Below, piece by piece: positions 8,635 to 27,110 of a stretch of 62,853 nt of DNA; positions within the stretch are counted from its first letter, which is position 1, and every line of letters starts with the position of its first letter. Origin of the DNA: Anaerolineae bacterium (lineage in GTDB: Bacteria; Chloroflexota; Anaerolineae; S140-20); the NCBI GenBank assembly GCA_027021705.1, contig JALUTT010000018.1:1-62853 (forward strand). The letters are read 5' to 3'. Below the pieces are notes generated by a model. The model ran no database searches. It was not told where the DNA came from and worked only from the letters and a program-made list of their open reading frames with translations. The translations under genes were made by a program, and so were the position numbers.

Positions 8635-8830
8635 CCTGAGTTCTTCCAGGGGGCGTGGGACGGCTTGTCGGGCCGTCCCGCTTTGCTTCTGTACGGGGTG
8701 CGTCCGAGGCGTGTTGCTTCTCTTTTCTCCTTCTTGGCTCCCTGCGCTCGCGGCTGTGTAACCCGATTCACGGTGCCTGTTGGGTAAGGGTTGATCGGTC
8801 ATTGCGCCGCGATGGTGGCGGGAACCCTCC

Positions 8831-8955: not shown

Positions 8956-9144
8956 TAAGGCGTAAATTTTGCGTAAAATTTCTCGAAGTAGCTGGCAGGA
9001 CGCCGGGACTGTGTGGGCTGGCAGATGTTGATTCCTGGCAAAACCCTGGGCCGCTTACCTGAATACTGGACAACTGCCCCCCGGCCAGATACCTTTGGGT
9101 GGGAATCAGCCATAGATAGTTGTCAGCCAGTCGAGGGGTGCAGA

Positions 9145-9516
9145 GTGCGGATATGCGTTGCCATTCTGTCAAGCCATTCGCTTTTTGCCGAAGGCGTTGT
9201 TAACCGGCTGCGCCAATACTTGCACGATGTGGAATTTGCGATTGTAGACCCCCGGCGGCCGGACGTGATGTCCCAAATCGCTGCTGTCTGCCCCACAGTT
9301 GTACTCCTGGATGTCACGGATCCTGCAACAACTCGGTTTTGCCCTTTGAGCAAGCTTCTACTAACCTTTCCAGAGCTTAAGGTGATACGCTTGGATCAGC
9401 AGCATGAGCAGATTCAGGTGCTGACCAGCGAACGCCGACCAGCCGTGAGGATCCGTGATCTGGTCGAGGTCATCGCTGCCAACGACTCGTCAGGTCCCAA
9501 GCAGGCCCACGTGTGA
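9145..9516 (+). CDS. Stand-alone degenerate receiver (REC-like) domain protein
   Basis: GTG start after GAGGGG; VAILSSHSLFAEGV resembles VLVADDHSLFRDGI of the neighbouring regulator; VVLLD. Confidence 0.55.
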   Translation: MRICVAILSSHSLFAEGVVNRLRQYLHDVEFAIVDPRRPDVMSQIAAVCPTVVLLDVTDPATTRFCPLSKLLLTFPELKVIRLDQQHEQIQVLTSERRPAVRIRDLVEVIAANDSSGPKQAHV

Positions 9517-9644: not shown

Positions 9645-10946
9645 ATGAGGATTGCTTCCCATCGGGATGGGAAGAACTCGATCTCGAAGGGCTGCCGATG
9701 GTTGGGAGTATTGGTTGTCCTGGTGGGGGTTCTGGGGTTGTTCGGATGGGCGTGGCGCGTTGAGGCAAGTGCGCCGTTCAGCCCGGTTTCGGTGGAAGGG
9801 GGTGTAGCCTCGGGGTCGGATCCTGATACCAACTGCCTGATGTGTCACTCGGACCCCGATTTCAAAGGCACCTTTCGGAATGGGGAATTGATCTCTCTGT
9901 ACGTTGACAAAGGAGAATATGAGCAATCGGTTCACGGGCCGGCCGGCTTGGAGTGTCTGGCGTGTCACACGAGCATCAGCCGCTACCCCCACCACGAGGA
10001 GGAGCAGGTCACCTGTGTGGCGTGCCACGGAGAGGCGGTGAGCAAGGGAAACATCACGTATGCGACCTTGCGGGTGCAGCTCCCCTACGCCGACCGTCGG
10101 GAGATGACCCTGACCATCAATGAGGCCTGCCGTTCCTGCCACGAGCGAGAGTTTGAGGTGGCCGGCGACAGCGCCCACGTGAGGGTGCTGCGGGGGGGGA
10201 ATCGGGAGGCCCCTGTCTGTGTGGATTGTCACGGCAGCCACGACATCACGCCGCCCGAGGAGCCCCGGGCCAAGATCTCTCACACCTGTGGGAAGTGCCA
10301 TCGTGCGGTCTACTCGACCTACCGCACCAGCATCCACGGGTCGGCTCTGGACCAGGAGTCAAACCCGGATGTTCCTACCTGTGTGGACTGCCACGGGGTG
10401 CACAGTGTCCGGGGACCGCGTGATGCTGCTTTCCGCAACGATAGCATCGCCATCTGCGGCGAGTGTCACGCCAACAAGGCTCTGATGGACAAGTACGGGA
10501 TCTCCACCAGCGTTTTCCAGACCTATCTGGATGATTTCCACGGTCGTACGGTGGATCTCTTCCGCCGCCAGCACCTGGGTATTCCCAGCAACAAAGCGGT
10601 CTGCTTCGATTGCCACGGCATCCACAATATCCGCCGGGTGGATGATCCCTTGTCCACAGTCTATCCGACCAACCTTCAGCACACCTGTCAGCAGTGCCAT
10701 ACCGATGCCAACATCCGGTTCCCACGGGCGTGGCTTGGTCACTACATTCCCACGCTGGAGGAGACGCCGGCGTTGTACGTCGTCAACCTGGCCTATCGCA
10801 TCTTGATCCCTTTGGTGATCGGTGGCTTCCTCCTCTATATTGGTTTGGATGCTCGCCGGCGGTGGCTTGACAGGCGTCAGATGGTACGCCAGGCCCTCGC
10901 TGAAGTGGAACTCGATGAATATGACTTCACCAACGATTTCTCCTAA
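9645..10946 (+). CDS. Decaheme c-type cytochrome with C-terminal TM helix (CbcL cytochrome c domain-like)
   Basis: Signal peptide; 10 CxxCH (CLMCH, CLACH, CVACH, CRSCH, CVDCH, CGKCH, CVDCH, CGECH, CFDCH, CQQCH); C-terminal TM. Confidence 0.9.
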   Translation: MRIASHRDGKNSISKGCRWLGVLVVLVGVLGLFGWAWRVEASAPFSPVSVEGGVASGSDPDTNCLMCHSDPDFKGTFRNGELISLYVDKGEYEQSVHGPAGLECLACHTSISRYPHHEEEQVTCVACHGEAVSKGNITYATLRVQLPYADRREMTLTINEACRSCHEREFEVAGDSAHVRVLRGGNREAPVCVDCHGSHDITPPEEPRAKISHTCGKCHRAVYSTYRTSIHGSALDQESNPDVPTCVDCHGVHSVRGPRDAAFRNDSIAICGECHANKALMDKYGISTSVFQTYLDDFHGRTVDLFRRQHLGIPSNKAVCFDCHGIHNIRRVDDPLSTVYPTNLQHTCQQCHTDANIRFPRAWLGHYIPTLEETPALYVVNLAYRILIPLVIGGFLLYIGLDARRRWLDRRQMVRQALAEVELDEYDFTNDFS

Positions 10947-11832
10947 CGCAGGTCACGACTACGAGGAAGAGCTGGCCTCGATCGAGCAGATCAAGCGGAA
11001 GGCACGGGCTCGCAAGTTACGAGCCGCTCGATCCCTTGCGGCCCGGATGCAGATTATGCCGGATGGCTCGCGGGTCTTCATCCGCTTCAACCGGACGGAG
11101 CGCTTTGAGCATCAGGTTCTCATCGTGACATTCACCACCCTGGCCGTGACAGGGTTGCTTCAGCGCTACAGCCAGCACCTCGTTGTTGGCTGGATCATCA
11201 ACCTCCTGGGTGGGGTGGAGACGATGCGCACGCTTCATCACTTGGCGGCCTTCGTCTTCATCCTAGAAGCGGTGTACCACACCTGGCGGATTCTGGTGAT
11301 CTGGTTTGTCAAGCGAGAACGCGGTGCGATGTGGCCCTCGCTGCGCGATTTTCGGGACCTGGTGCATATGGTGAAGTTCAACCTGGGTCTGGTGGATCAC
11401 CGACCGGAGTTTGACCGCTTCACCGTCGAGGAGAAGCTGGAGTATTGGGCATTGCTGTGGGGGGCACCCCTGATGATCATCACCGGACTGATGATGTGGT
11501 TCCCGGTCACCGTGACCTCGGTGTTGCCCGGTGATGCAATCCCGGTGGCTCGGGCCTTGCACGGTTGGGAAGCGATTTTGGCTACCCTGTCCATCCTGAT
11601 CTGGCACATGTACCATACCGTCATCAAGGAGCGAAACAGGAGCATCTTCACGGGCATTATGACGGAAAGGGAGATGCAGCACGCGCATCCCTTGGAGTAC
11701 CGGCGCATCCTGGCAGCCTACGCCTATCTTCAGAAGGTCGCTGCAGAGGAGATGCCCACCGAGGAAGGTCCAACCCATCCCCAAAAGATCCTGGCAGGGA
11801 CCGGTTATGAAGCGACCCAGGGTGTTGGATGA
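10915..11832 (+). CDS. Cytochrome b subunit (FdnI/HydC family; CbcL b-domain-like)
   Basis: RFNRTERFEH, LHH, EKLEYW, ITGLMMW, LHGWEAILA, WHMY; four TM helices with His ligands. Confidence 0.88.
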   Translation: MNMTSPTISPNAGHDYEEELASIEQIKRKARARKLRAARSLAARMQIMPDGSRVFIRFNRTERFEHQVLIVTFTTLAVTGLLQRYSQHLVVGWIINLLGGVETMRTLHHLAAFVFILEAVYHTWRILVIWFVKRERGAMWPSLRDFRDLVHMVKFNLGLVDHRPEFDRFTVEEKLEYWALLWGAPLMIITGLMMWFPVTVTSVLPGDAIPVARALHGWEAILATLSILIWHMYHTVIKERNRSIFTGIMTEREMQHAHPLEYRRILAAYAYLQKVAAEEMPTEEGPTHPQKILAGTGYEATQGVG

Positions 11833-13402
11833 ACAGGCCATCGCTGTAGATGAACAGATCATTGTGGACGAGCAGGCCATCGAGGAGTATGGCGAGGCGG
11901 CTTCCGTCCTTGTCGAGCCCCGGCCATACCGGCGTAGGCTCCGATGGCCGAAGGTGGTCATTGACCTCAGCCGTCCCAAGCATCGGCTGAACCTGCTCAT
12001 AGCCCTTGGGGTTCTGCTCCTGGTGGGCCTTGTCTTCCTGTTCAGCGGATACCAAGTCTACACCTACACCGAAAGCGCCGAGTTCTGTGGCACGGTCTGC
12101 CATCCGATGAAGTCGGAGTTCGTCCGTTACGAGCGCTCCCCGCACGCCAATGTCGAGTGCGCCAAGTGCCACATCGGGCCGGGGGCTTCCTTCTTCGTCA
12201 GATCCAAGATTGACGGGCTGAAGCAGGTGGTGGCCGTCCTGGCAAACAGCTACAGCCGCCCTATCAAGAGCCCTGTCTACAACCTGCGTCCTGCCCGGGA
12301 GACGTGTGAGGAGTGCCATACACCCACCCTCTTCCGCGACAACATCATTAAGACGATCGTCCACTACGACAACGATGAGGCCAACACACCGGTCCAGTCC
12401 ACCCTCATCCTAAAGATGGGAGGATGGCGGGAGAGCACAGGGGTCAGCGAAGGCATCCACTGGCACATTACCAACCCGGTCTACTACATCGCTGCCGATG
12501 AACAGCGACAGGTAATCCTGTGGGTGGGCGTAGAGCAGGAAGATGGGACGCTGAAGGAGTTCTATGCCCGAGATATGCTCAATATGGCTTGGACCGAGTT
12601 TGTGGAGGAAGCGCGTGCCAGGGGAGAGATCCGCAAGATGGATTGTATAGACTGCCATAACCGCACCGCCCACTTCATCCCTCCGCCAGAGGTGGTTGTG
12701 GATGAGGCCATCAGCGTAGGGAAGATCTCCAGGAAACTGCCCTACATTCGGGCCAAAGCGGTTGAGGTGCTGTCGGTAGAGTACGCCAGCGAGGCCGAGG
12801 CCTATGCTGCCATAGAAGGGCTTCTAGACTTCTACCGGGTAGGGTACCCGGAAGTGTACACCAAGTATCGCGCTGAGCTGGATGCGGCCATCGAGGAGCT
12901 CAAGCGGATCTACAGCAGCACCAACTTCCCCGATATGCGGTTGAGTTGGCGGACCAACCCCAACAACGAACGCCACACGCCTTTCCTGGGATGCTTCCGC
13001 TGCCACGATGGCAAACACGTCAACGTGGACAAATCGGGGAATGAGGTGGAGGTTATCAGCGTTAAGTGCAATCTTTGCCACACCGTCCCCATTGTCGGGC
13101 GGGGCGACGATATGCTCGTAGAGGCCCCGGTCATCGTCGGGTCTGTACCGCCCTCCCATTCAGACTTCCGATGGACCATCGAACACCGTTCGGTGACCGA
13201 GGAGGAGAGGCAGGAGTGCTACCAGTGCCACGGACAGGGCTTCTGTAGCAACAGCGTGTGTCACAATCTCTCGCATCCTCCGGATATGCTCTTCACCCAT
13301 GCCGAGGAGTATCGCAAGACGGGGAATCAGGTCTGCTACACCTGTCACCAGGATATTCTGTGTAGCCGTTGCCATCCAGGCGGCATAGTGTCCAATCCTT
13401 AG
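11807..13402 (+). CDS. imcH: ImcH-like NapC/NirT family membrane multiheme cytochrome c
   Basis: TES..FCGTVCH, SPHA.VEC..CH.GPGA, NLRPARETCEECH, GIHWHI, MDCIDCHNR, GCFRCHDGKH match recalled Geobacter ImcH motifs; 8 CxxCH + CX3CH + CX4CH. Confidence 0.8.
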   Translation: MKRPRVLDEQAIAVDEQIIVDEQAIEEYGEAASVLVEPRPYRRRLRWPKVVIDLSRPKHRLNLLIALGVLLLVGLVFLFSGYQVYTYTESAEFCGTVCHPMKSEFVRYERSPHANVECAKCHIGPGASFFVRSKIDGLKQVVAVLANSYSRPIKSPVYNLRPARETCEECHTPTLFRDNIIKTIVHYDNDEANTPVQSTLILKMGGWRESTGVSEGIHWHITNPVYYIAADEQRQVILWVGVEQEDGTLKEFYARDMLNMAWTEFVEEARARGEIRKMDCIDCHNRTAHFIPPPEVVVDEAISVGKISRKLPYIRAKAVEVLSVEYASEAEAYAAIEGLLDFYRVGYPEVYTKYRAELDAAIEELKRIYSSTNFPDMRLSWRTNPNNERHTPFLGCFRCHDGKHVNVDKSGNEVEVISVKCNLCHTVPIVGRGDDMLVEAPVIVGSVPPSHSDFRWTIEHRSVTEEERQECYQCHGQGFCSNSVCHNLSHPPDMLFTHAEEYRKTGNQVCYTCHQDILCSRCHPGGIVSNP

Positions 13403-13425
13403 GGCTATAGGAGGCTTCCTGAAAT

Positions 13426-14388
13426 ATGCCTACGCTCAACGGGTCCACGCAGAAAGGCCGAAGCTTTAACACGCAAGAGATCCAGCGGGCCATCTGGATC
13501 GTGCTGACGGCTCTGATTGTCAGTGTCATACTCTTCGGCGGCTACTACTACTGGGATCGCTATGTTCGCCTGAAGGACAAGTCGCCGATGGAGATGGACA
13601 TCGAGCGGCTGGAGCAGGCGATCCGTGAAGATCCTCAGAATCCCGATGCCCGGGTCGCCCTGGCCGAGTATTACCTGCGCAGCGGGATGCCCCAGAAGGC
13701 CCTGGAGCAGGCGAATCAGGTGTTGAAGGTTTACCCGGAGCACGAGGGAGCGTTGCTCATCGCAGGGATTGCCTACGTTCGCCTCAACCAGCCCGAGGCT
13801 TCCCTGGCCCCCCTGGAGAAGTTCGTGGAACTGCGCAAGGATCGCCCGATGGCCGGTGTGGATACTGCCCTGGAGACGGCGTACTACTTCCTCGGCGAGA
13901 GCTACGTCAAGTTGAACCGGCCTGAGGATGCGATCCCTGTGCTGGAAGCAGCGCTGAAGATCACTCCGACGGATGCCGATGCGCTCTATCAGGCGGGTGT
14001 GGCTTATCAGGCTACCGGTGAGTTGGAGACGGCTCTGGAGCGCTATCATAGGGCTGTGCGCCTCGTCCCCGACTTCCTCGAGGCCTACCAAGGCATGGTC
14101 GAGAGCTATTCTGCCTTAAACCAGCCGGATTACGTGGTGTACGCTCAGGGGATGGAAGCTTTCTGTCGGAAGGATTATCAGACGGCTCAGGACTACCTGG
14201 AACAGGCCACCGAGGCGCTGCCAGACTTTGCCCCGGCCTTTCTGGGCCTGGGGTTGACCTATGAGCAGATGGGAGATTTAGAAGCCGCGCTGGCAGCCGT
14301 GGAGCGGGCCCTGGAGTTGCAGCCCAATGACTTCGCCATCCTGCAGGCGCGTGGTCGTATCCAAGCCGCACTGGACTCAAAGAAGTGA
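13426..14388 (+). CDS. Membrane-anchored TPR protein
   Basis: N-terminal TM helix followed by many TPR repeats (e.g. AYYFLGESY, ALYQAGVAY, AFLGLGLTY). Confidence 0.9.
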   Translation: MPTLNGSTQKGRSFNTQEIQRAIWIVLTALIVSVILFGGYYYWDRYVRLKDKSPMEMDIERLEQAIREDPQNPDARVALAEYYLRSGMPQKALEQANQVLKVYPEHEGALLIAGIAYVRLNQPEASLAPLEKFVELRKDRPMAGVDTALETAYYFLGESYVKLNRPEDAIPVLEAALKITPTDADALYQAGVAYQATGELETALERYHRAVRLVPDFLEAYQGMVESYSALNQPDYVVYAQGMEAFCRKDYQTAQDYLEQATEALPDFAPAFLGLGLTYEQMGDLEAALAAVERALELQPNDFAILQARGRIQAALDSKK

Positions 14389-14394
14389 GCGCAT

Positions 14395-15606
14395 ATGTCG
14401 AACATAGACGCCGGGAACCAGGTTTCTGAGCACGACCTCAGCCTTATCGAAGAAGAAGAGCGGGCGGAGAAACGACGCCGGTGGTTGCTCCTGCTGCTCT
14501 TGCTGCTGCTGACGTTGCTGGCTTGTGTGCTCTTGCTCTTCATCCGCTATCTGCGGCAGCCGGAGCCGTTGCCCGAGATGATCCCGCTGCCGGTGGACGT
14601 GAACTACCCGCCCCATTACTTGTTCTCGATCTACGGAGTGGACAAGCCGGTCGGTGTGGCCTACTCGCTGAGGAATGACCGCATCTATGTCGCGGAAACC
14701 GGCGGCAAACGTCTGGTGAAGATCTTCGACCGGGATGGCAACCCGCTGGGCTCCTTCGCGCCTCCACGCACGATGCCCGGCGAGCGGTCGCCGGTCTACC
14801 TGGCTGTTGACGGAGCCGGCCGTGTCTTCGTCACCGATCGCCTTCAGCACGCGATATTCGTATACGACGAGAACGGGACCTTTCTAGATACCATCCTGGG
14901 GCCGGACCTGACGCTGAGCGAATATGTGCTCAAGCACGTGAACAACCTGCGACCCGATGCCACCTTCGCCTACAACCAGTTCGAGCACGTGGTCTACTAC
15001 AAAAGCCCCGGAGAACCGGAGCGGACGTTGCCCACACCCGAGCCGGCGATGTGGGCTCCGCTGGGGATCCGATTCGATCGCACCGGTAGGCTGCTGTTCA
15101 CGGATGTGAGACAGGAACGCAATGCTGTGTACTTGATCTCGGCCGATGCCTTCTCGCCCTCCTCTTGGCGGAATTTCGATCCGCCTGTGATCTCCTTCGG
15201 TTCGACGGGGCAGGGAGATGGGCAGTTCCTCTTCCCCAACTCGGCGGTCGCCGATTCCCAGGGACGGATCTACGTCACCGATGGGAACAATGGCCGCATC
15301 TCTGTGTGGGATGAGAAGGGGCAGTTCCTGTTCCACTTCGGTGGAGGTTCTGGTGAAGGTGCGCTCAGCCTGCCTCGCGGTGCGGCCATAGACGAGCGGG
15401 ATCGGCTTTACGTGGTGGATGCTGTGGGGCAGAACGTGAAGGTCTACGATGTTTCGGGACCGGAGCCTGACTTCCTCTTCGCCTTCGGCGACTGGGGAAT
15501 GGGTGATGGGCAGTTCAACTATCCCAACGACATCGCTTTGGATCGCTACGGGCGATTGTACATCGCCGATCGAGAGAACAATCGTATCCAGGTTTGGTCT
15601 TACTAA
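14395..15606 (+). CDS. Membrane-anchored NHL-repeat beta-propeller protein
   Basis: Poly-Leu TM; GDGQFLFP..GRIYVTD, LPRGAAID..LYVVD, GDGQFNYPNDIA..LYIADRENNRIQ. Confidence 0.9.
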   Translation: MSNIDAGNQVSEHDLSLIEEEERAEKRRRWLLLLLLLLLTLLACVLLLFIRYLRQPEPLPEMIPLPVDVNYPPHYLFSIYGVDKPVGVAYSLRNDRIYVAETGGKRLVKIFDRDGNPLGSFAPPRTMPGERSPVYLAVDGAGRVFVTDRLQHAIFVYDENGTFLDTILGPDLTLSEYVLKHVNNLRPDATFAYNQFEHVVYYKSPGEPERTLPTPEPAMWAPLGIRFDRTGRLLFTDVRQERNAVYLISADAFSPSSWRNFDPPVISFGSTGQGDGQFLFPNSAVADSQGRIYVTDGNNGRISVWDEKGQFLFHFGGGSGEGALSLPRGAAIDERDRLYVVDAVGQNVKVYDVSGPEPDFLFAFGDWGMGDGQFNYPNDIALDRYGRLYIADRENNRIQVWSY

Positions 15607-15787
15607 GTCATATCGGTGTGCTAGCGCGAGCGGCTCCCCGATCATGGCCAACGATTGGATGGGGGTTCAACGGGCCACGAGCACACGCCGTAAAGAAAGG
15701 AGGTGGTAGGGGCAGAAGCACAGATTACGGACTTCATACCATCGGCCACACATTGTGAGAACAGTTTGGGAGATGGGAGGTAGAGAG

Positions 15788-16783
15788 ATGAGAAAACTGA
15801 TCCTAGCCACAGTCGTCGTCCTAGCCTTGGCTCTGACCATGGTTGGGTTGGCGTCTGCCAATGGCGGACCCCACGGCGGCTACACGGCGACCACCGATGC
15901 GTGCGCCGGCTGTCACCGGGCGCACACCGCCATCGGCCCCAGGCTGCTCGTCCGGTCCAGCACCTATGACCTGTGCATCTCCTGCCACGGGTCTGCGGGG
16001 GCGGGCGCCAACACCAACGTGGAGGACGGTTACTACCTGTCCAGCCGCGATGATCCGCCCGGTGGTGCGGATGGCAACGTGGGTGCGGCCAACACACCCG
16101 ACAACGCCCCGTTGCTGGGTGGCGGCTTCCAGTACTACCAGGGGATAACCGTCACCTCCTCGCACGATCCGACCGGGACGGTGCTCGCTGCCTGGGGTAA
16201 TGCGGTTGACCGAGGCACCACGGCCGACCTGTCGGAGGGCCTGAGCTGCGCCTCCTGCCACGATCCCCATGGCTCCCCCAACTACCGCATCATCAAGGCT
16301 ACGGTCAACGGTGTTGCGGTGTCGGTGGACCAGGTGGATGAGGGCGCGGCCAAGGACTACGATACCGAGCAGTGGGGCGCTGGCATGAGCAACATCTGCG
16401 CTGCCTGCCACGTGGCCTACCACGAGACAGGGGCCGACGTGGGCCACGACACCACCAACCAGGCCTACGGTGGCGGCTTCACCCACCGGGTGGATATGCC
16501 CTGGAACGGTGATGCGCTCACGGACCCGCTGATCGGTATGGGCACGAACAACCCCGAGACGGTTGGCTTCGGTGGCTACACCCTGCCGTTGGCCGAGAGC
16601 GGTACTGCCGACCGGGTGGTCTGCATGACCTGCCACCTGCCGCACGGCACATCGGCCCAGATGACCGGCTTCGCTGATCCGGCCTTCGACCCCAGCGGGC
16701 CGCAGGGTCCGATCCCGGCAGGCGATAGCTCGCTGCTGCGCCTGGATAACCGCGGTGTGTGTGAGGTCTGCCACCAGAAGTAG
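15788..16783 (+). CDS. OmcS-like hexaheme cytochrome c (putative nanowire subunit)
   Basis: Sec signal ending ASA; 6 CxxCH; PH..CAGCHRAH, GPRLL, GGGF, LSCASCHDPHG..YRI, GAGMS..CAACH, VCMTCH.PH, terminal CEVCHQK in OmcS order. Confidence 0.8.
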   Translation: MRKLILATVVVLALALTMVGLASANGGPHGGYTATTDACAGCHRAHTAIGPRLLVRSSTYDLCISCHGSAGAGANTNVEDGYYLSSRDDPPGGADGNVGAANTPDNAPLLGGGFQYYQGITVTSSHDPTGTVLAAWGNAVDRGTTADLSEGLSCASCHDPHGSPNYRIIKATVNGVAVSVDQVDEGAAKDYDTEQWGAGMSNICAACHVAYHETGADVGHDTTNQAYGGGFTHRVDMPWNGDALTDPLIGMGTNNPETVGFGGYTLPLAESGTADRVVCMTCHLPHGTSAQMTGFADPAFDPSGPQGPIPAGDSSLLRLDNRGVCEVCHQK

Positions 16784-16816
16784 GAGCACGGCATAGCCGC
16801 TCGACCTAACCTCTGC

Positions 16817-16851
16817 TTGTCCCCTCCCGCCTTCGGGCGGGAGGGGGACAA
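16817..16851 (+). terminator. Strong stem-loop after the first OmcS-like gene (terminator or 3' stabiliser)
   Basis: TTGTCCCCTCCCGCC-TTCG-GGCGGGAGGGGGACAA with cUUCGg tetraloop; no U-tract. Confidence 0.65.
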
Positions 16852-16869
16852 TCGGAGAAGGAGGTTAGT

Positions 16870-17928
16870 ATGAAACTCAGGATCGCCCTCGTCATCGGCT
16901 TGCTAGCGCTCCTTGCTCTGCCAACCGGCTTGGCCCTGGCTGACAATGGCCCCCACGGGGGGTATACGGCGACCACCGACGCCTGCGCCGGTTGTCACCG
17001 AGCGCACACCGCTCCTGCGGCCCGGCTGCTGTTGGATACCGTACCCAACCTCTGCTTCACCTGCCACGGCAGCACGGCCACCGGTGCAGATACCAACGTT
17101 GAGGATGGCATCTACGTGGATCGCGACTTCGAAGCCGAAGCGCCTGCCGAGGGCGACGTCAACCGGGGGTTGAAGGGTGGTGGCTTCGTCTATGCCTTGA
17201 TGGATACGGACTTCGACGGAGCAGCTACCAGCTCCCCTGTGACGTCTTCCCACCTGAACGATGGAAGCACCGGTACGGCCTGGGGTAACGGCAACATCGG
17301 CTCCGGACCTGGGGCGGCGAACTTCAGCCTGTCGTGCACTTCGTGCCACGACCCTCACGGTGGCGCCAGCACCACTGGCGGTGCAACCTACCGCCTGCTG
17401 CGGCCAATACCGATCAACTCAGGGGCAGCTATCGGCGTCAACGTCACCGATGAGACCGACAAGATCTACACGGTCGCTGACGCCAATAACAAGTACTTCG
17501 GAGAAGGCTACCCGTACACGCCTGGAGACACCTGGTCCTCGATGGACCAGCAGGAGCGGGAGATGTCCGACTGGTGTGCGCAGTGCCACACCCGCTATCT
17601 GGCCGATTCCGGCAGCGGGAGCACGAGCTCAGGCGATGACATCTTCATGTATCGCCACATGTCCGAGGGCACGCCCAGCGCCACCTGCAACGACTGCCAC
17701 ATTGACTACGGCTCTCCCCCCACCCTTCGGACTACCGTTGGCCCCGAGTGGCATCACAACGTAGAATGCATGACCTGCCACGTGGCCCACGGGACATCCG
17801 CAACGATGACGGGGTATGCCGCCTACGTCGAGTGGCCGGATGGGTCAACGACGCCCGATGGGGACGCTCGCAGCTCCCTGCTGCGCGGCGATGGCCGCGG
17901 GGTGTGCCAGCGCTGCCACGGCAAGTAG
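16870..17928 (+). CDS. OmcS-like heptaheme cytochrome c
   Basis: Signal peptide ending ALA; 7 CxxCH; MSDWCAQCH; paralog of 15788-16783; GGAGG RBS. Confidence 0.8.
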   Translation: MKLRIALVIGLLALLALPTGLALADNGPHGGYTATTDACAGCHRAHTAPAARLLLDTVPNLCFTCHGSTATGADTNVEDGIYVDRDFEAEAPAEGDVNRGLKGGGFVYALMDTDFDGAATSSPVTSSHLNDGSTGTAWGNGNIGSGPGAANFSLSCTSCHDPHGGASTTGGATYRLLRPIPINSGAAIGVNVTDETDKIYTVADANNKYFGEGYPYTPGDTWSSMDQQEREMSDWCAQCHTRYLADSGSGSTSSGDDIFMYRHMSEGTPSATCNDCHIDYGSPPTLRTTVGPEWHHNVECMTCHVAHGTSATMTGYAAYVEWPDGSTTPDGDARSSLLRGDGRGVCQRCHGK

Positions 17929-18096
17929 GCCGCTTGACGGTAGCCTTCCAGCGGGTATAGAACTGTCTACGGCGATGCTCGGGCCCGTTTCATCCATAGC
18001 TCTAGATGGTCTGAGAGATGATGAGGCGACGGAGCGGCACCAGATGCCCAGAGCGCTTCTGTAGATGGCGATGGGCGATGGGTCGCCCCACAGGCG

Positions 18097-18128
18097 TGGC
18101 GGGCCGGGCTGCCCATCCCGGCCCGCCA
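18097..18128. other. Intergenic GC-rich hairpin
   Basis: TGGCGGGCCGGG / CCCGGCCCGCCA 12 bp stem. Confidence 0.55.
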
Positions 18129-18159
18129 GAGGCCCGCCTTGGGTACAAGGAGTAGTCCC

Positions 18160-19203
18160 GTGAACCGGTCTCATCGCAGATCGTTGACGATCTCCTTCTT
18201 GGCCTTGCTCATCACTGCGCTCTTCCTGGGCTCTGGCGCGTCCGTTGCACGGGCCGACAACGGTCCTCATGGAGACTACACAGCGACGACCGATGCCTGC
18301 GCCGGTTGTCATCGGGCACACACGGCCGGCGCTCCTCGTCTGCTGCTCGACGACGTGCCCAATCTCTGTTACACCTGCCACGGCAGCGGCGGCAACGGCG
18401 CCGATACCAACGTCGTGGATGGCATCTATCTGGAGAGGGACCTGGACACCGAAGACCCCGCTGAGGGCATCGCTGGGCGGGGCTTGAAAGGTGGCGGTTT
18501 TGTCAACGCGCTGATGGATACGGATTGGGATGGCGCTGCCACCAGTGCACCGACCACGTCAAGCCACCTGGTAGACGGCAGCACCGGCACGGCGTGGGGC
18601 AATGGGGATATTGGCTCCGGCCCCGGGGCGACCATCCCCCTCTCGTGCACCTCTTGTCACGACCCGCACGGCAGGGCCAGTACCACCGGAGGGCCTACCT
18701 ACCGCCTGCTCCGCGCCATCCCCGTCAACTCGGGTGCGACCACGGGGGTAGATGTCGAAGATGAGGTGGATAAGGTCTACACCGTCTCCGACACCGCCCA
18801 GAAGTCCGGCAACCAGTATTTCGGCGAGGATTACGGAACCCAGGGGGACCAGCTCTCCGAGTGGTGTTCCCAGTGTCATACCCGCTACCTGGCCCCCGGT
18901 GGCAGTGGGAGCACCGACTCCGGCGATCCGATCTTCGCCTATCGCCACCTGACCCAAGGATCCCCCAGTTGTAGCCTCTGCCACGACGTCCACGGCGGCA
19001 CACTGCCGACCGGCGGGCCGATGTTCAGCCACGACGTGACTTGTGTGACCTGTCACGTTGCCCACGGCACCTCTGCCAGTATGGGAGGGTACGCCGAAAA
19101 CGTTGAATGGCCCGATGGTGCGACCGACCCCTCGGGGAACAACCGGAGTTCTCTTCTCCGGGTGGACAACCGGGGTACCTGCCAGTTGTGTCACGGGAAG
19201 TGA
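18160..19203 (+). CDS. OmcS-like heptaheme cytochrome c
   Basis: GTG start after AAGGAG; signal ending ARA; 7 CxxCH; LSEWCSQCH; close paralog of 16870-17928. Confidence 0.8.
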   Translation: MNRSHRRSLTISFLALLITALFLGSGASVARADNGPHGDYTATTDACAGCHRAHTAGAPRLLLDDVPNLCYTCHGSGGNGADTNVVDGIYLERDLDTEDPAEGIAGRGLKGGGFVNALMDTDWDGAATSAPTTSSHLVDGSTGTAWGNGDIGSGPGATIPLSCTSCHDPHGRASTTGGPTYRLLRAIPVNSGATTGVDVEDEVDKVYTVSDTAQKSGNQYFGEDYGTQGDQLSEWCSQCHTRYLAPGGSGSTDSGDPIFAYRHLTQGSPSCSLCHDVHGGTLPTGGPMFSHDVTCVTCHVAHGTSASMGGYAENVEWPDGATDPSGNNRSSLLRVDNRGTCQLCHGK

Positions 19204-19243
19204 TGGCTGACCGGATTCCCCACGACCTCCGGTAGGGGAGAGG

Positions 19244-22200
19244 TTGAAACGCAACGATGGGAACGGACGGACCAGCCTCAGGGAAAAGATGATGAAGCAT
19301 CCTCGCAACGGCACTCCATGGCAACCACGTACTCACAACAAGGAGCGGATCCGGCTTCTCAGAACGCTCCGCCGGAGCCACGCTCTCACCCGAATGGCCG
19401 TCCTCTCCCTGACCATCCTGGGACTGTACTTCTCCCTCCTCGTCGGTGGGGTGCCGACCATTGGGGCCGAGCAGGCCCCCACGGAGACCCCGACCCCTGA
19501 CATGGGTACGGTGACGGGGGTGCCCACCAGCGCTCCCTTGGACGAGGAAGACGGCACGACTACCGCCACGCCGACGGTGACCTCCACGCCGTTCATCACC
19601 CCGACGGCGACGCCGGCCTGGACCGCCACACCTCCGGTGACCCCCACGGAGGTCATCACGCCGACGGTGGTGTCTTCGACCCCTGTCCTCCCGACGGTCA
19701 CGCCCACCGAGCCCTTTACCCTGACGGTCCCCCCCTCAACGCCGGACACCCCAACCCCTGTGCCGACGGAGCCTATTACCCTGACGGCAACCCCTTGGCC
19801 GGTGGAATCGCCGTCGGCGACTCCAGTCTCCAGCCCCTCCGTTCCGGTGACCTCGACGGCGACGCCCACCGAGACGGCTGAGCCCACAGCATCGGTCACG
19901 CCAACGGTCCCGCCTGCTCCGTCGGCCACGCCGACGATCACCCCTACGCCTGCGGTCACCGTCACCGTGACCGTGACGCCCACGGAGACCACGGTGCCGG
20001 AGGTCTCGCCTACCGTCACGGTCACCCCGATCGTTACGCCAACGCCGGTGGCGTTCGAGGGTAGCTACGTGCCGGATGAGGTGCTCGTCCGCTTCCTGCC
20101 GTTGCCGCTCCCAGGGTTTTCGGCCACGACAGCGGCGGCCCTCGCCGAGACTCATAAGATCGAGGTGGAAGGCACTCTGAGCCGCCTGGGCGTGTGGGTG
20201 ATGAAGGTCCCACCGGGCCAAGTCGAGCAGGTTGTCTCGGACCTCCGGCAGGATCCGAGGGTCCTGTTCGCTGAACCTAACTACATCGCCCGAGCCTACC
20301 TCACCCCCGACGATCCCAGTTGGCCGCTGCAGTCCTACCTGTCGAACATCCAGGCCCCTCAGGCGTGGGATGTAACGACGGGATCGCCGGAGGTGGTTAT
20401 CGCGGTAGTGGACACCGGTGTGGACCTCACCCATCCCGACTTGGTGAACAAGATCTGGCACAACCTGGGGGAGATGGGGCTGGACGCCGAGGGCAACGAC
20501 CGGCGCACCAACGGCGTGGACGACGACGGCAACGGCTACGTGGACGACTGGGTGGGGTGGAACACCGTTGCCGGCACGGGTGATGTGCAGGATGACCACG
20601 GTCACGGCACCTATGTGGCCGGCGTGGCCGCTGCCGATACCAACAATGGGCAGGGGATCGCCGGGGTCTCCTGGGGGGCGCGGATTATGCCGGTAAAGGT
20701 GCTGGATAGCACCGGTTTCGGTACCTATGCTCAAGTGGCTGCGGGCATCATCTACGCCACCGACCAAGGGGCGCGGATCATCAATCTGAGCCTCGGGGGC
20801 ACGGAGCCCAGCGCCCTGCTCGAGGCTGCCATCGGGTATGCTGCCGCCCACGGCGTCACCGTGATCGCGGCCACCGGCGATTCGGGGACCTCGGGCGTGA
20901 GCTATCCGGCGGCCTATCCCAGCGTGATTGCCGTCGGGGCGACCGATGGTAACAATCAGATCGCCCCCTTCTCCACCTTCGGCGACGCGGTGGACCTGGT
21001 AGCCCCTGGGGTGGACGTCTACTCCACCTATCCGGGCGGTTACGCCCAGTTCTCGGGTACCTCGGTGGCTGCGGCCCACGTCTCGGGGGTGGCTGCCCTC
21101 TTGGCCAGCCTGCCGGCCTTCGATACCCCGGACAAGATCCGGGCGGCGCTGGAGGCGACGGCCCTCGACTTGGGGGAGCCGGGTTGGGATCCCTATTACG
21201 GGTTTGGTTTGGTGCAGGCCTACGATGCATTGACCCAGCCGCCCCCGGTTGGCCCGACGCCCACGCCCACCCCCACGGCGACGCCGGGGCCATCGCCAAC
21301 CCCGACGGCGACGCCGACGCGAGGGCCGACGCCCACCCCGTCGGGGGGTGGTGGTGTACGCGCTTTGGTCACCGAAGAGCTGTGGGCCACGGCACAGGAC
21401 TGTGATTATCCCATCACCGATCCGGCGAACAGCATTGACCTGGCCTTCAACGATCTGGTGGCCTCCTGCACGGGGGATTTTGGGAGGGACAGGACGAGTT
21501 GGACCTATACCGCCTTCCAAGATACGACGCTGGCTACCATCGTGATGGTAACGCTGGACGTGCGCTTCTACATGACGGGCTGGGTGGATGATCGCATTGA
21601 TCTGGAGATCTTCAACGGGGATCGCTGGTACCGGCTGGCCCGTTTCGAAGGTGGGGAGGAAACGCCGCCGGGGACGTTGACCACCCTTTCCTACGATGTC
21701 TCATCGTGGTTCACCACACCCGCCGAGGTCAATGCGGCTCAGTTGCGCTTCCGAGGGCGCAGGAGGAACGGCGGTACGGATACCATCACCATCTACCTGG
21801 ATGAGGCTCGCCTCAATGCCAGTGATGTGATTCCCACACCCACGCCGGCGCCGCCCCTACCGACGCCGACATCCCCGCCACCGGCGCCCACCGACGTGCC
21901 TATTGCCGGGGATCCTCACGTGGATTACAGCCCGACGACCGACAGTTGCGCGGCCTGCCACCGTTCCCACACCGCCTACGGCATGGTGCTGCGCCAGGCG
22001 TGGCCGGAAGAGGATCTCTGCTTCGGCTGCCATACCGATGGCGGCACGGGCACCAACGTCCAGCCGGCCTTCACCAGCTACACCAATACTTCCACCCGCA
22101 TCTTCAAGCACGACATCGCCGCCACCAATGGTGTCCATCGGATCGGGCAGACCACCGGTGCCGACTTCGGAGGAACCAGCCGGCACGTGGAGTGTGAGGA

Positions 22201-23065
22201 CTGCCACGAGCCCCACGAGGCCACCCGTGGTCCGTCCGATGCCCCGATGCTCCAGCGGGAGATGAACTACGCCTCGGGTGTGGATCCGGTCTGGACAGGG
22301 CCCGGTGCGCCGACCTCCTACGTCTGGCTGCAGCAGGCCGAGCGGGAGTATCAGGTCTGCTTCAAGTGCCACTCCAGCTTCACCACCCTCCCCACCTACG
22401 TACCTGACGGCTGGGATGGTAGCCAGTATGTGGCCGATGGCCTGCGCAAGCTGACCAGCACCGATCCCAACCAGGTGCTGGACAGCCGGGATATGGCCCA
22501 GGAGTTCAACCCTTACAACGCCAGCTTCCATCCGGTGGTGGCCCAAGGTCGGAACCAGTCCATCCCGGCGGGGAGTTTCGTCACCGGCTGGTCGCAGACC
22601 AGCATGGTCTACTGCACCGACTGCCACAGCAGTGCCGACCCCACTCAGGGGGATGGTCCTCACGGTTCTCCTCTGTTGCACCTCCTTACCGGCAATGGTG
22701 GGCAGACGAACTACGTCACAGCACCGGGGGGCTGGGTGACCATCACCAGCGATTGGGTCTGCTTCAAGTGCCACCGGTACGAAACCTACGTTTCAGGCAC
22801 CGACCCTTCCACCAACACCAACTTCCGCAGGGGCAACCGTAACCTGCACGAATTGCACTCCGACCGACGTAACGTGCCCGATGCCTCGTGCTATGCCTGC
22901 CACGACTCCCACGGCAGCGAGCAACTGCACCTGATCAACTTCGACGCGAGCTGGGGTGGGGGCATCACTTTCCTGAATGGCCGGAACAGCCAGACAGCCT
23001 GGACCGGCAACAGCTGCTACCTCGTCTGTCACGGCAGAGATCACTCCAACATCACGTATCCCTGA
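19244..23065 (+). CDS. S8 subtilase / octaheme cytochrome c fusion with Pro/Thr linkers
   Basis: Hydrophobic N-terminal segment; ~200 aa P/T tract; prodomain (YVPDEVLVRF..AEPNY); VVDTG, HGT, SGTS triad; C-terminal 7 CxxCH + CYLVCH. Start uncertain. Confidence 0.85.
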   Translation: MKRNDGNGRTSLREKMMKHPRNGTPWQPRTHNKERIRLLRTLRRSHALTRMAVLSLTILGLYFSLLVGGVPTIGAEQAPTETPTPDMGTVTGVPTSAPLDEEDGTTTATPTVTSTPFITPTATPAWTATPPVTPTEVITPTVVSSTPVLPTVTPTEPFTLTVPPSTPDTPTPVPTEPITLTATPWPVESPSATPVSSPSVPVTSTATPTETAEPTASVTPTVPPAPSATPTITPTPAVTVTVTVTPTETTVPEVSPTVTVTPIVTPTPVAFEGSYVPDEVLVRFLPLPLPGFSATTAAALAETHKIEVEGTLSRLGVWVMKVPPGQVEQVVSDLRQDPRVLFAEPNYIARAYLTPDDPSWPLQSYLSNIQAPQAWDVTTGSPEVVIAVVDTGVDLTHPDLVNKIWHNLGEMGLDAEGNDRRTNGVDDDGNGYVDDWVGWNTVAGTGDVQDDHGHGTYVAGVAAADTNNGQGIAGVSWGARIMPVKVLDSTGFGTYAQVAAGIIYATDQGARIINLSLGGTEPSALLEAAIGYAAAHGVTVIAATGDSGTSGVSYPAAYPSVIAVGATDGNNQIAPFSTFGDAVDLVAPGVDVYSTYPGGYAQFSGTSVAAAHVSGVAALLASLPAFDTPDKIRAALEATALDLGEPGWDPYYGFGLVQAYDALTQPPPVGPTPTPTPTATPGPSPTPTATPTRGPTPTPSGGGGVRALVTEELWATAQDCDYPITDPANSIDLAFNDLVASCTGDFGRDRTSWTYTAFQDTTLATIVMVTLDVRFYMTGWVDDRIDLEIFNGDRWYRLARFEGGEETPPGTLTTLSYDVSSWFTTPAEVNAAQLRFRGRRRNGGTDTITIYLDEARLNASDVIPTPTPAPPLPTPTSPPPAPTDVPIAGDPHVDYSPTTDSCAACHRSHTAYGMVLRQAWPEEDLCFGCHTDGGTGTNVQPAFTSYTNTSTRIFKHDIAATNGVHRIGQTTGADFGGTSRHVECEDCHEPHEATRGPSDAPMLQREMNYASGVDPVWTGPGAPTSYVWLQQAEREYQVCFKCHSSFTTLPTYVPDGWDGSQYVADGLRKLTSTDPNQVLDSRDMAQEFNPYNASFHPVVAQGRNQSIPAGSFVTGWSQTSMVYCTDCHSSADPTQGDGPHGSPLLHLLTGNGGQTNYVTAPGGWVTITSDWVCFKCHRYETYVSGTDPSTNTNFRRGNRNLHELHSDRRNVPDASCYACHDSHGSEQLHLINFDASWGGGITFLNGRNSQTAWTGNSCYLVCHGRDHSNITYP

Positions 23066-23223: not shown

Positions 23224-26200
23224 ATGGTGGTTCCTATGGTGACTTCTGCGGTTTTCCTCACGCCTCGACGGCACATCCGGTCTCGGGGGAGGAGGCAGAT
23301 CAGACAGGGGCTGGGTCGGGGATTGCACCTTCTCGCTCGGGCCATCCTGTTGATGGCGCTGGTGACGACGATCATCCCGGTTCCAGGGATCTATGCGGCC
23401 ACCTTCGACGTGAATGACCCAAATGATGCCGGGGATACCTCTCCGGGCGACGGAATCTGTGACAGCGACGAGGCTTCCCCCGGCCCCCAGTGTACGTTGC
23501 GCGCCGCCATCGAAGAGGCCAACGCCCTGCCGGGTCCTGATACCATCAATCTGGCTGCGGCCGGCCCCTACTACCTGACCGAAGGCGTGCTCACGGTCAC
23601 CAGCGAGATCACCCTGAACGGCAACGGAGAGACCATCAGTGCAGGTGGGCTCTCCCGTATCTTTTTGGTGGAAGGGGATGGCGTGCTCTCGTTGGACGGC
23701 GTGACCCTTCGGGATGGTGTGGGGGATGAAGGTGGCGCGATCCACGTTCGACCGGGGGGAACGCTGTACATCTCGAACAGCGCCATCGTCAACAACGCGG
23801 CGGTCAACACGGAGTCCAGCTCTGGCGGCGGCATCAACAACTGGGGGGGCACGGTCACCATCGTCAACACCACCATCTCCGGCAACCGGGCCAACGCCGG
23901 CGGTGGTGGCATTGCGAACCTGACCGCTTACGAGGGGGGCAGCTTTGTTTACGGCACGATCACCCTGACCCACGTGACGATCACCGACAACATCGCCGAT
24001 TTCGACGGGTCCGATGGCAACAGTCACGATGGTGGGGGGATCTTCACCTTTGGGATGCTCAATGTCGGGAGTTCCATCATCGCCGGCAATGTGGACAATA
24101 GCCCCGCCTTAGGCACGGTCTACCCCGATTGTGTCAACTGGTATTACCTCACTACCCAGCAGTACAACCTGATCGGGGATAACACCGGCTGTGATGTACC
24201 GTACCCCGCCGACGACCCGACCAGCTACTTCCCGCCGGGCACCCCCAATGACAACCACGACTTCGTCGGTACCGGCGACGCGCCCCTAGACCCGCTGCTC
24301 GGCGATCTGACCGGCAACCCGGCCTATCACCCGCCCCTGGCCGGCAGCCTGGCCATAGACCAGATCCCCGCGGATGCCTGCTCGGTCACCAGAGATCAGA
24401 TCGGGACGCCTCGCCCCCAGGGGACGGCCTGCGACATCGGTGCTGTGGAGGTCGCCTCCCAGGTGGACCTGAGCATCACCAAGACGGTCACCCCCACCCT
24501 CCCCGTCGCGCCGGGCCAGAGGGTCACCTACACCCTCACCTTCAGCAACCAGGGCGAGGGCATCGCCCCTGAGGTCGTCATCACCGACATCGTTCCGGTG
24601 ACCCTGACCCACGTCAGCGTCATCAGCAGCGGCGTGACCGTGACGGATACCGGGGTGAGGCCGGGCTTTGTGTGGGGCGTGGAGGACCTCTCGCCGGGCG
24701 AGGGCGGGATCATCACCATCAGCGGTCGGATCAGCGAGAGCCTGATTGCCGCGACCATCTTCACCAACACCGCCGTCATCGCTACCAGCGCTCAGGATTC
24801 TGACGCCGACAACAACGAGGCCGCTGTGGGGGTGACGGTGATCCCCCACGAGTCCGAGTGGTCCGACTTTTGCCTTCTCCAGCGGATGGAGATCACGGGC
24901 ATCGGGATGGGAGATCGTTACGGTGCCATCAACCCCCAGACTATCTCCCTGTCCGATCCGGATGGGGTGAATTGGCTGTTGGTCCAGGTCGCCGGACGAC
25001 GAGCCTTTGGGGCACCGATCCCGGACCAGGTGGTCCTGACTCCCGATCGGCCCCCGTCGTTCACCCTCTACCAGCCTCACCGCAGCAGCCCACACGGCTA
25101 CACCTTTGAGGCGAACCTGCGCCCGACGAACCAGATCACGGCCTTCGTCAGCAACGTGGGGGAGGACTACAAGACGCCTCGGGGCCTGGTGCTGTACAGC
25201 AAGCGGGCTACTGTGGACCGCTGGACCTCCGTCGGCAGGACCGCCAACAAGTTCATCTACCGAGGATGGAAGGGCTCCCACACTGAGGTGCTGACCTTCC
25301 CGCCGTTGCAGAGCGCGACGGACCTCTTCGCCACCGCCGTGGTCATTGACAACGATGATGATGCCCGCCCGATTGTGGTCACGGCGGAGGCCGGAGGGGT
25401 GACCGACACCGTGAGCATCCTCGGTTCCTCGGACGGTCCGGGTCTGAACATCGTTCGCCTGGCCCTCCCCCAGGTACCCACCGGAACCCAGCAGATCAGC
25501 ATCACGGTCCAGTCGCCGACCAGCAACGGCGATTCGATGGTCCTGACGGGGGTAGACGTTAGCTTCTCGTGCGAGAGGCCAACCGGTGCGGTGGTGCGCG
25601 TCGAGCCCTCACCGGCGACGATCCCCCTGGGGGCGACCCGCTTGTTGACCGTGACGGTGGACCCCGGCTCGGCCCAGGTCAACGGTGTGCAGATCCACGG
25701 TCAGGTGGACCCCGCATACCTGCACCTGGTGGATGTCCGGCCCAGTGGGACCCTGACGGTGGAGCTGGACCCCGTGGCCTTTGACCCCACGACGGGGGAG
25801 TTCCGCTACGGGGCGAGCCTCCTCGACGGCGTCATCACCGAGCCCTTCCCGGTGCTGACCCTTGAGGTCCAGGCGGTAGCTCTCACCGATGGAACCTGGG
25901 TTAAGTTCCTCGACGAGCCCCCGCCGACCGACGTCAGCGGTCCCGACGGCAGCGTGATGAGCCAGGCCCAAGATGGGTTGGTCATCGTGACGCAGGCTCC
26001 TGTCCTCCGTGGATCGGTGGATATGCAGGGCCGTCCTCCCAAGCCTGCACCCCCCTGGGCGATCCCGTTGACGGTTTGGCTCTCACCGCCGGGGGATACG
26101 ACCCCGATCTACACCGCGACCGTCACCACCAACCAATATGGCGAATTCACCCTTGCCCTGGGCGATCTCCCCTCTGGTCCGTACGATGTCCGGTTGAAGG

Positions 26201-26985: not shown

Positions 26986-27024
26986 CCTGCTCGAAGCCGA
27001 TCAGCCGTCTGCGCTCTTGCGAAG

Positions 27025-27055
27025 GGGGCGACCTCACGGTCGCCCCTGGCTTTTT
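27025..27055 (+). terminator. Hairpin / likely intrinsic terminator ending the cluster
   Basis: GGGGCGACC-TCAC-GGTCGCCCC followed by tggcTTTTT. Confidence 0.55.
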
Positions 27056-27066
27056 CTGCCCGGCTG

Positions 27067-27075: not shown

Positions 27076-27110
27076 GGGAGGGCGAATCCACAAGTCAGCG
27101 AGCACGGCCT

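Follow-up and report, generated by a model that had tools for sequence, protein, structure and literature searches.

By sequence comparison, three tandem cytochrome genes of an Anaerolineae bacterium (Chloroflexota) encode distant but clear relatives of OmcS, the filament-forming cytochrome of Geobacter sulfurreducens (Protein Data Bank (PDB) 6EF8/6NEF). The genes, here called cytA, cytB and cytC, lie on the forward strand of contig JALUTT010000018.1 (assembly GCA_027021705.1); its positions 1 to 62,853 form the window that we analyzed, and all coordinates below refer to that window. An earlier note on this DNA had read the region as three tandem OmcS-like cytochromes, and three forward-strand genes with profile homology to OmcS-like proteins at E 1.5e-33 bear this out. 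We think it probable, if some way short of confident, that the three proteins are subunits of a head-to-tail OmcS-like wire fed by a co-directional electron-export gene set. The source bacterium probably has a single membrane and no outer membrane, and single-membrane bacteria may build OmcS-like wires to export electrons.

Three tandem cytochromes and their kinship with OmcS

The genes occupy tandem forward-strand open reading frames (ORFs) at 15755-16783 (342 amino acids), 16870-17928 (352 amino acids) and 18139-19203 (354 amino acids). With the starts preferred here they are:

cytA, 15788-16783, forward strand: secreted hexahaem cytochrome of the OmcS superfamily, six CxxCH
cytB, 16870-17928, forward strand: secreted heptahaem cytochrome of the OmcS superfamily, six core haems and one inserted CNDCH
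cytC, 18160-19203, forward strand: secreted heptahaem paralogue of cytB, seven CxxCH

The cytA ORF opens at GTG 15755, and the ATG at 15788, 11 codons inside (MRKLIL...), is the likely start. The cytC ORF opens at TTG 18139; GTG 18160, which has AAGGAG in front of it at 18148-18153, is the most likely start. The 230-base gap between cytB and cytC holds a G+C-rich perfect hairpin on the forward strand (18098-18128, stem of about 11 bp, no T tail), which may affect transcript stability or read-through.

All three proteins carry a hydrophobic leader whose AxA-type signal-peptide end, read from the sequence by eye, falls directly before (D/N)(N/G)GPHG. In an alignment of the three, a first block, GPHG(G/D)YTATTDACAGCHRAHTA, is common to all with one variable residue, and the later blocks follow in the same order in each protein: GGGF, LSC(A/T)SCHDPHG...YR, (M/L)S..C..CH, C(M/V)TCH..HGTSA and a C-terminal C..CH.K. 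The earlier note had described this shared N-terminal block and motif order, and every motif that it named was found in the alignment; its inventory had overlooked the second haem motif, C..CHGS, and the seventh CxxCH of cytB and cytC (CNDCH and CSLCH, respectively), with which the totals become six, seven and seven. Identity over the mature region is 69% between cytB and cytC and 37% between cytA and either of them. The most conserved part of the three paralogues is the N-terminal arm, at 81-92% identity, and the C-terminal haem-5/6 region is 51-72% identical. The proteins had also been called shorter than OmcS, correctly so: their mature lengths of about 307-328 residues compare with 407 in the OmcS PDB chain, a difference of about 80-100 residues.

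Profile comparison aligns this family with OmcS over almost its full length. We used a family profile built from an alignment of 62 members (A2) and an alignment of 12 OmcS-like proteins (A3), and scanned species-representative genomes with A2, which recovered 66 loci (labelled L001 and so on). In hhalign, A2 matches A3 across 309 columns, almost full length (Prob 99.9, E 1.5e-33), with all six CxxCH in register and CHRAH falling on CHTMH. Because haem motifs are known to be sticky in such comparisons, an unrelated family, that of the operon's decahaem cytochrome, was run against A3 as a control and gave only Prob 77 and E 2e-5 over 64 columns. Searched against the PDB, the A2 profile meets OmcS (6ef8) collinearly at E 0.0015, pairing LsCtsChdPhg with LHCSSCHDPHG and lsewCaqCht with MSEWCANCHT. 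The A3-type loci are themselves true OmcS homologues, matching 6ef8 at E 1.5e-79 in L059 (Desulfosudis oleivorans genome bin) and at E 2.6e-66 in L055 (Desulfuromusa genome bin), and a single OmcS-like query matches Chloroflexota-type members directly at E 4.9e-6 in a set of 4449 ORFs. The best tblastn segment to OmcS has about 24% identity. Among domain families, Paired_CXXCH_1 (PF09699 / TIGR01905) scores above cut-off at the N-terminal two-haem block of all three proteins (58-70 bits against 20.6 in Pfam, 55-58 against 25.2 in NCBIfam); the remainder of each protein gives weak matches to generic multihaem families only in these two databases. Because of the hhalign match, the decahaem control and the ligand conservation described below, we regard the placement of cytA, cytB and cytC in the OmcS superfamily, as full-length relatives, as well supported at the level of sequence.

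The superfamily is large and reaches other phyla. At least 1049 relatives at E ≤ 0.001 were present among the 8000 candidates scored, and the closest of them, where named, are entries called 'cytochrome c3 family protein' from Chloroflexota or Anaerolineae bacteria. A profile search of 1.84 billion representatives clustered at 50% identity yielded 1161 superfamily representatives at E ≤ 1e-30, and the superfamily extends to Actinomycetota and to cultured Neobacillus species. In a quick IQ-TREE tree of 79 rows, cytA falls in an all-Chloroflexota clade of 12 rows (SH-aLRT 99), and cytB and cytC are sisters (SH-aLRT 91) within a B-type clade that also holds L001 and L003 (SH-aLRT 96); from this topology the split between A and B types is old and that between cytB and cytC recent. 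A third, seven-haem type occurs in L001, L005 and L010. The Actinomycetota members, including Coriobacteriales L036, share a half of the tree with cytA, cytB and cytC.

Two further groups of relatives deserve mention. Isolates of Neobacillus niacini, N. vireti, N. drentensis and N. jeddahensis (L047, L049, L050, L052, L053) carry two to three tandem hexahaem genes, with NrfH-like, TPR and NHL genes upstream and a gene for a seven-haem protein downstream, and these strains could serve as laboratory models. In L007, a metagenome-assembled Deinococcus sp. genome, two B-type genes accompanied by TPR and NHL genes (47% identity to cytB) nest among the Chloroflexota, which could reflect gene transfer or a mis-binned contig.

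Haem ligands, module ends and a proposed head-to-tail assembly

The ligands of the six core haems are conserved nearly without exception. Across 79 members with six or seven haems, drawn from all phyla recovered and aligned with MAFFT, the six CxxCH are invariant (79/79), and the distal histidines H29, H46, H128, H163, H263 and H307 (cytB numbering) are kept in 79, 78, 79, 79, 79 and 77 of the 79, respectively. These six His coincide exactly with the invariant His of the OmcS-like proteins, cytB H29 and H46 corresponding to OmcS H2 and H16, and the first His lies a few residues from the mature N-terminus as it does in OmcS. All 24 ligand positions (12 Cys and 12 His, for six bis-His haems) are kept position for position in cytA, cytB, cytC and an OmcS homologue, and no CxxCK motif is present in the alignment of the three proteins. 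The His three residues after haem motif 1, to which attention had been drawn before as conserved in all three, is indeed present in each and in 78/79 relatives. We take His16 of OmcS to be the ligand of the neighbouring subunit's haem 5. If the ligand wiring is as in OmcS, the His after motif 1 would likewise serve the haem 5 of a neighbour, and a monomer would be incomplete. Subunits of both OmcS and OmcE are linked via a His that ligates a haem of the neighbouring subunit (PMC9473688; here and below, papers are cited for the parts of their text available to us).

By homology, then, the cytochromes would stack head to tail. The N-terminal arm, bearing haem 1 and cytB His46, would dock on the haem-5/haem-6 end of the previous subunit, His46 would supply the missing axial ligand to that subunit's haem 5, and the outcome would be a continuous haem chain across and beyond the envelope. 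Two long relatives, both brought up by the profile search of 1.84 billion representatives, bear on the ends of the module. P0122 (1880 amino acids, 42 CxxCH) contains four complete hexahaem modules in tandem at residues about 872-1880, and P0125 (1509 amino acids, 32 CxxCH) contains three at residues about 874-1509, with numerous additional haem motifs ahead of them in both cases. The modules are complete in their ligands, the two arm His included, and about 14 residues lead from the final CH.K of one module to the first His of the next. Modules have therefore been joined naturally end to end, in the orientation expected of an OmcS-type chain, and from their sequences these proteins would be, in effect, covalently linked stretches of wire.

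Structure prediction adds a further hint. AlphaFold2 models were built without haems. A first cytB model from 62 sequences had a mean predicted local distance difference test score (pLDDT) of 68; a model from a 138-sequence superfamily alignment reached pLDDT 83.2 and a predicted TM-score of 0.83, with a beta-strand region at residues 108-155. The low-confidence stretches of the latter model are residues 27-48, the N-terminal arm that bears haem motif 1 and His46, together with the short loops 213-216 and 283-290. The arm is thus the one long part that AlphaFold2 leaves unplaced on the monomer, and we infer that this lends some support to stacking.

Several observations weigh against an OmcS-like polymer. 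In Foldseek searches of the PDB, OmcS was the top match but a weak one, at E 2.7e-3 and TM 0.30 for the pLDDT 68 model and at E 1.2e-3 and TM 0.29 for the pLDDT 83 model; it was the sole match below E 3 in both searches, the next being OmcE at E 3.5. A deeper alignment did not cure the poor fold match, for pLDDT rose from 68 to 83 as the TM-score to OmcS went from 0.30 to 0.29. Fold servers are reported to return nothing for OmcS except close homologues (PMC9473688). In the PDB profile search MtrA (7.3e-7) and NrfA (1.7e-5) outscore OmcS by way of short haem-motif matches, and single-sequence phmmer searches against the PDB gave no OmcS match. CxxCHxxH is also the generic Paired_CXXCH_1 motif, and in other cytochromes the haem bound by its trailing His may belong to the same chain. 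A Pfam scan of the 20 ORFs of positions 1-32610 found no outer-membrane barrel or porin family (the ORFs at 26907-29300, 30695-31918 and 31696-32610 had no Pfam match), in keeping with a host that lacks an outer membrane; published OmcE and OmcS clusters contain genes for beta-propeller proteins and for a large outer-membrane barrel (PMC13712944). The module is moreover fused to other domains at its N end in L057, in L041 and in the subtilase fusion at 19244-23065 described below, and at its C end in L002, L003, L005 and L006, so not every copy can lie inside an endless homopolymer and such copies could be only end subunits. We know of no experiment on, and no polymer for, any relative outside Geobacter. 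The nearest case, the hexahaem CwcA of Thermincola (Tfer_0075 / TherJR_1122), which aligns to OmcS at 18% identity and was insoluble when produced in E. coli, has been modelled as a wall-spanning head-to-tail polymer in which a neighbour's His sits on haem 5, and that polymer is a homology model only (PMC7911101).

The C-end fusions have a character of their own. The long B-type proteins of L002, L003, L005 and L006 were considered as tandem OmcS modules and rejected as such: they combine a complete B-type module with a different multihaem extension. These extensions add 5-10 further haems (L002 7401-11986, L003 2261-6368, L005 9851-12160, L006 3167-5152); one type ends like the domain of the subtilase fusion (C...CHG..H.P..Y), and the other has GAPP-type motifs. 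Proteins extended in this way could be end or tip subunits.

The strongest alternative, which we consider rather unlikely and yet serious, is that these OmcS homologues form no filament at all. They would instead work singly or in small fixed complexes, embedded in the wall or S-layer or attached to the tethered subtilase-cytochrome, and carry electrons no further than one or a few subunits, each haem finding its ligands in its own chain or in a closed dimer. The TM-scores of just 0.29-0.30, the 80-100 residues fewer than in OmcS, the fused forms with extra domains at either end and the generic nature of the paired-haem motif all fit such an arrangement, as does the lack of a demonstrated polymer in any single-membrane relative (PMC7911101, within its available text). 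It accords poorly with the retention of the 24 OmcS ligand positions, including the His16 counterpart, since with conserved wiring the haem 5 of a monomer would be short of a ligand; nor does it account for the natural end-to-end concatemers or for an arm left unplaced on the monomer in an otherwise confident model. We regard the nanowire, that is, the head-to-tail polymer, as a reasonable inference, good but unproven.

Co-assembly of the three paralogues in one wire, as the earlier note had suggested, mixed or ordered (for example with cytA as adaptor or base and cytB and cytC as the bulk), is speculation with no specific support, and we doubt it. The contact regions are more alike than the proteins as wholes (arm 81-92% and haem-5/6 region 51-72%, against 37% overall), so that by analogy with OmcS the contacts would be compatible across paralogues, and the near-identical arms leave mixing possible as far as sequence can tell. 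The cytA type and the B type are also old, separately conserved lineages that stand next to each other in 9/11 related cytA-type loci, where a B-type module, free or fused, lies directly downstream, and the same arm motif recurs in a fourth module, that of the subtilase fusion. The two types are often but not always paired: L016 and L025 have a cytA-type gene and no B-type module at all. Against co-assembly, cytB and cytC stem from a recent lineage-specific duplication for which dosage or differential expression is an equally fitting reason, and, given the high conservation of the arm throughout the family, haem binding alone may explain its identity among the paralogues. The tandem paralogue OmcT of Geobacter, moreover, is not known to be part of the solved OmcS filament.

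The gene neighbourhood and the tethered subtilase-cytochrome

The three genes belong to a co-directional gene set, and all multihaem genes of the window fall within 9645-23065. The other members are:

6369-7994, forward strand: sensor histidine kinase; Pfam HAMP, HisKA_3 and HATPase_c; two CxxCH (CKECH, CVRCH)
7963-8634, forward strand: LuxR/NarL-type response regulator; Pfam Response_reg and GerE; adjoins the kinase in related loci
9013-9516, forward strand: small conserved ORF of 167 amino acids; same place in L001, L005, L010 and L016, weakly in L025
9645-10946, forward strand: decahaem c-type cytochrome; 10 CxxCH; Pfam cytochrome c7/c3; hydrophobic segments at residues 12-30 and 375-393
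10822-11832, forward strand: cytochrome b561-like membrane protein; Pfam Ni_hydr_CYTB, E 2.1e-11; present in related loci
11807-13402, forward strand: NapC/NirT/NrfH-like multihaem protein; Cytochrom_NNT, E 2.7e-14; 8 CxxCH; hydrophobic segment 58-76; present in related loci
13426-14388, forward strand: TPR-repeat protein with N-terminal anchor; Pfam TPR families; hydrophobic segment 18-36
14395-15606, forward strand: NHL-repeat beta-propeller with N-terminal anchor; Pfam NHL, E 1e-28; hydrophobic segment 27-45
19244-23065, forward strand: membrane-tethered subtilase-cytochrome fusion of 1273 amino acids; Pfam Peptidase_S8, E 7.3e-58, and Fervidolysin_NPro-like

Upstream, the two CxxCH of the kinase sit in a loop between two hydrophobic segments, and because of them the kinase is probably a haem-c redox sensor. 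A terminator-like hairpin with a 12-bp stem directly follows the regulator gene (8655-8681); a scan for promoters and terminators found sites no more numerous than in shuffled sequence, and this hairpin alone was noteworthy. The decahaem cytochrome is probably membrane-anchored, because hydrophobic segments lie at both of its ends, and it is kept in 13/66 related loci (including L001, L002, L004, L005, L008, L009, L010 and L025). The cytochrome b561-like protein, whose start is uncertain because its ORF overlaps the previous gene, is the likely quinol-oxidising partner. The NrfH-like protein has an N-terminal membrane anchor and matches NCBIfam NrfH at E 2.8e-14, below that family's cut-off.

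This arrangement recurs across related loci. The syntenic series of kinase, regulator, decahaem cytochrome, cytochrome b, NrfH-like protein, TPR protein, NHL protein and cytochromes is found in L001, L005, L008 (whose contig ends before the kinase and regulator), L010 and L025. Kinase and regulator are downstream in L002, and L004 and L009 have no NrfH-like match and a differently placed kinase and regulator; homologues of the two regulatory genes accompany the cluster in many related loci. Superfamily members have a TPR gene no more than 4.5 kb upstream in 31/51 loci, and an NHL gene within 3 kb upstream on the same strand in 34/51, including several loci with true OmcS homologues (5 of the 17 loci without an NHL gene have less than 1 kb of upstream sequence). 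In Actinomycetota, Neobacillus and Thermincola loci, too, the TPR-NHL pair stands ahead of the cytochromes.

We propose that the sensor kinase and LuxR-type regulator probably control the electron-export set, and that electrons would pass from the quinol pool through the cytochrome b, decahaem and NrfH-like membrane proteins to cytA, cytB and cytC. The NHL propeller and TPR proteins would aid assembly or anchoring, and the membrane-tethered fusion might be an anchor, cap or maturation factor.

The fusion joins a protease to a further relative of OmcS. It consists of an N-terminal hydrophobic segment (47-65), Pro/Thr-rich linkers, a fervidolysin-type prodomain, an S8 subtilase domain with Asp-His-Ser motifs and a C-terminal cytochrome domain (about 21884-23065) with seven CxxCH and one CxxxCH. 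The family of this last domain matches A2 at Prob 99.4 and E 4.7e-22 and A3 at Prob 98.8 and E 6.7e-17 in hhalign, and by these profiles it is a divergent OmcS-superfamily module. A PDB search with the single sequence of the domain gave no match, and its placement comes from profile comparison only. The domain opens with the arm PH...C..CHR.HTA and closes with a conserved CH...H....Y.P tail. The same subtilase-cytochrome fusion is present in L001, L010, L025 and L029. Protease-free versions of its cytochrome domain follow the hexahaem genes in Actinomycetota and Neobacillus loci.

These parts could be combined into a wire of several kinds of OmcS-type subunit in a bacterium that lacks an outer membrane, a fuller scheme to which we give still less weight than to paralogue mixing. 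The fusion would be its base or initiator, cytA an adaptor and cytB and cytC the bulk, with the haem sensor kinase as the switch. The C-terminal module of the fusion would offer the first docking end, and the Pro/Thr-rich linkers would span the wall. The inserted seventh haem would form a side branch, making a 'leaky' wire that hands electrons to minerals or partners along its length, and the sensor kinase would turn the system on according to the outside redox state.

It is very improbable that the three proteins are enzymes and not conduits, namely multihaem reductases for nitrite, sulfite or hydroxylamine: the A2 profile does match NrfA 6v0a (E 1.7e-5, about 100 residues), cytA does give weak matches to Pfam Cytochrom_C552 and NCBIfam NrfA below or at cut-off, and an NrfH-like gene does lie upstream, but the NrfA-type matches span only the stretch from haem 3 to haem 4 and are far below the NCBIfam cut-offs (NrfA and octahaem families score 16-24 bits against 595-692; the Pfam score is 23.9 against 24.1), six distal His for six core haems with no CxxCK leave no obviously open haem for a substrate, and the full-length relative is OmcS.

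Other genes flank the set. Downstream, 23224-26985 (forward strand) encodes a 1253-amino-acid secreted DUF11-repeat protein and 26907-29300 (forward strand) a 797-amino-acid protein with no Pfam match; because neither has a homologue in the 66 related loci, both are probably outside the conserved system. Positions 1-6185 (forward strand), 5′ of the kinase, hold genes for an O-antigen-ligase-like protein, a DUF362 protein with a Tat-type leader, a family-2 glycosyltransferase and a type I phosphodiesterase. Some published OmcE clusters come with glycosylation genes.

Known systems and a possible route of electron export in Anaerolineae

The closest characterized relative remains OmcS itself. 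With OmcS, cytA, cytB and cytC share the order of six similarly flanked CxxCH (C.GCH..H, C..CH, L.C.SCHDPHG, MS.WC..CH, C..CH.AH and a C-terminal C..CH.K) and the six distal His including the His16 counterpart; they are secreted, their chains end just past the last haem motif, and a gene for an NHL-type propeller lies nearby. They differ from it in their shorter chains and low identity, in the beta-strand region of the cytB model, in the seventh haem of cytB and cytC and in a TM-score of 0.29. The host also differs, being a member of the Chloroflexota in which no outer-membrane barrel gene was seen nearby among the 20 ORFs scanned.

Other relatives of OmcS have been described beyond Geobacter. 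CwcA is likewise a hexahaem cytochrome of a single-membrane bacterium with the same proposed role, although it comes from another phylum and the window holds three paralogues, two of them with seven haems. Among our loci, L057 of Thermincola ferriacetica holds OmcS-superfamily hexahaem modules; it was considered as the CwcA locus, but the published Tfer_0075 cloning primers do not match it, and the identity is unproven. A Coriobacteriales (Actinomycetota) genome from a bioanode encodes an OmcS homologue (28% identical, with the six CxxCH all present), and is thus a further case outside Proteobacteria and Desulfobacterota; it differs from ours in being, in the available text, a single gene mentioned in passing without cluster analysis (PMC7399161).

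Two features of the cytochromes have parallels in other nanowire families. The nearest published parallel to the subtilase fusion is OmcZ of Geobacter, which is cut by the adjoining subtilisin-like protease OzpA before filament formation (PMC9473688), so that in both systems a cytochrome gene adjoins a subtilisin-family protease gene. OmcZ is unrelated in sequence and has no inter-subunit His ligation, whereas here the protease is fused to an OmcS-type domain and membrane-tethered; we found no evident processing site in cytA, cytB or cytC. The inserted haem of cytB and cytC resembles that of five-haem OmcE-like proteins, which also have one extra CxxCH within a conserved nanowire core and belong to the OmcE family, not the OmcS family. 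Their additional haem is predicted to be solvent-exposed, a side haem that makes the wire 'leaky' (PMC13712944).

The available text of a BLAST-based survey of OmcS homologues (e<1e-5, coverage >75%) names neither Chloroflexi nor Gram-positives (PMC10954620), and that of a study relating 11- and 12-haem Carboxydothermus proteins to TherJR_1122 and 'bacillary hexahaems' does not mention OmcS (PMC7829351). We found no paper tying Chloroflexota proteins to OmcS in the literature searched, which excluded most subscription journals, so the link has possibly been published.

Solved structures of cytochrome nanowires are known only for a few Geobacter relatives and two archaea, and the passage of electrons through the thick envelope of bacteria without an outer membrane is poorly understood. 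The OmcS-type module described here is shorter than OmcS and in part seven-haem, and it occurs as three copies in a conserved operon that also encodes a tethered protease-cytochrome partner. By sequence, a large Chloroflexota family is a true full-length relative of OmcS that keeps every haem ligand; its operon is strongly conserved and brings along a quinol-side module, accessory proteins and a probable redox-sensing regulator. Sediments, digesters and anode biofilms commonly harbour Anaerolineae-type Chloroflexota, and an OmcS-type wire, if true, would help to explain their suspected electroactivity.

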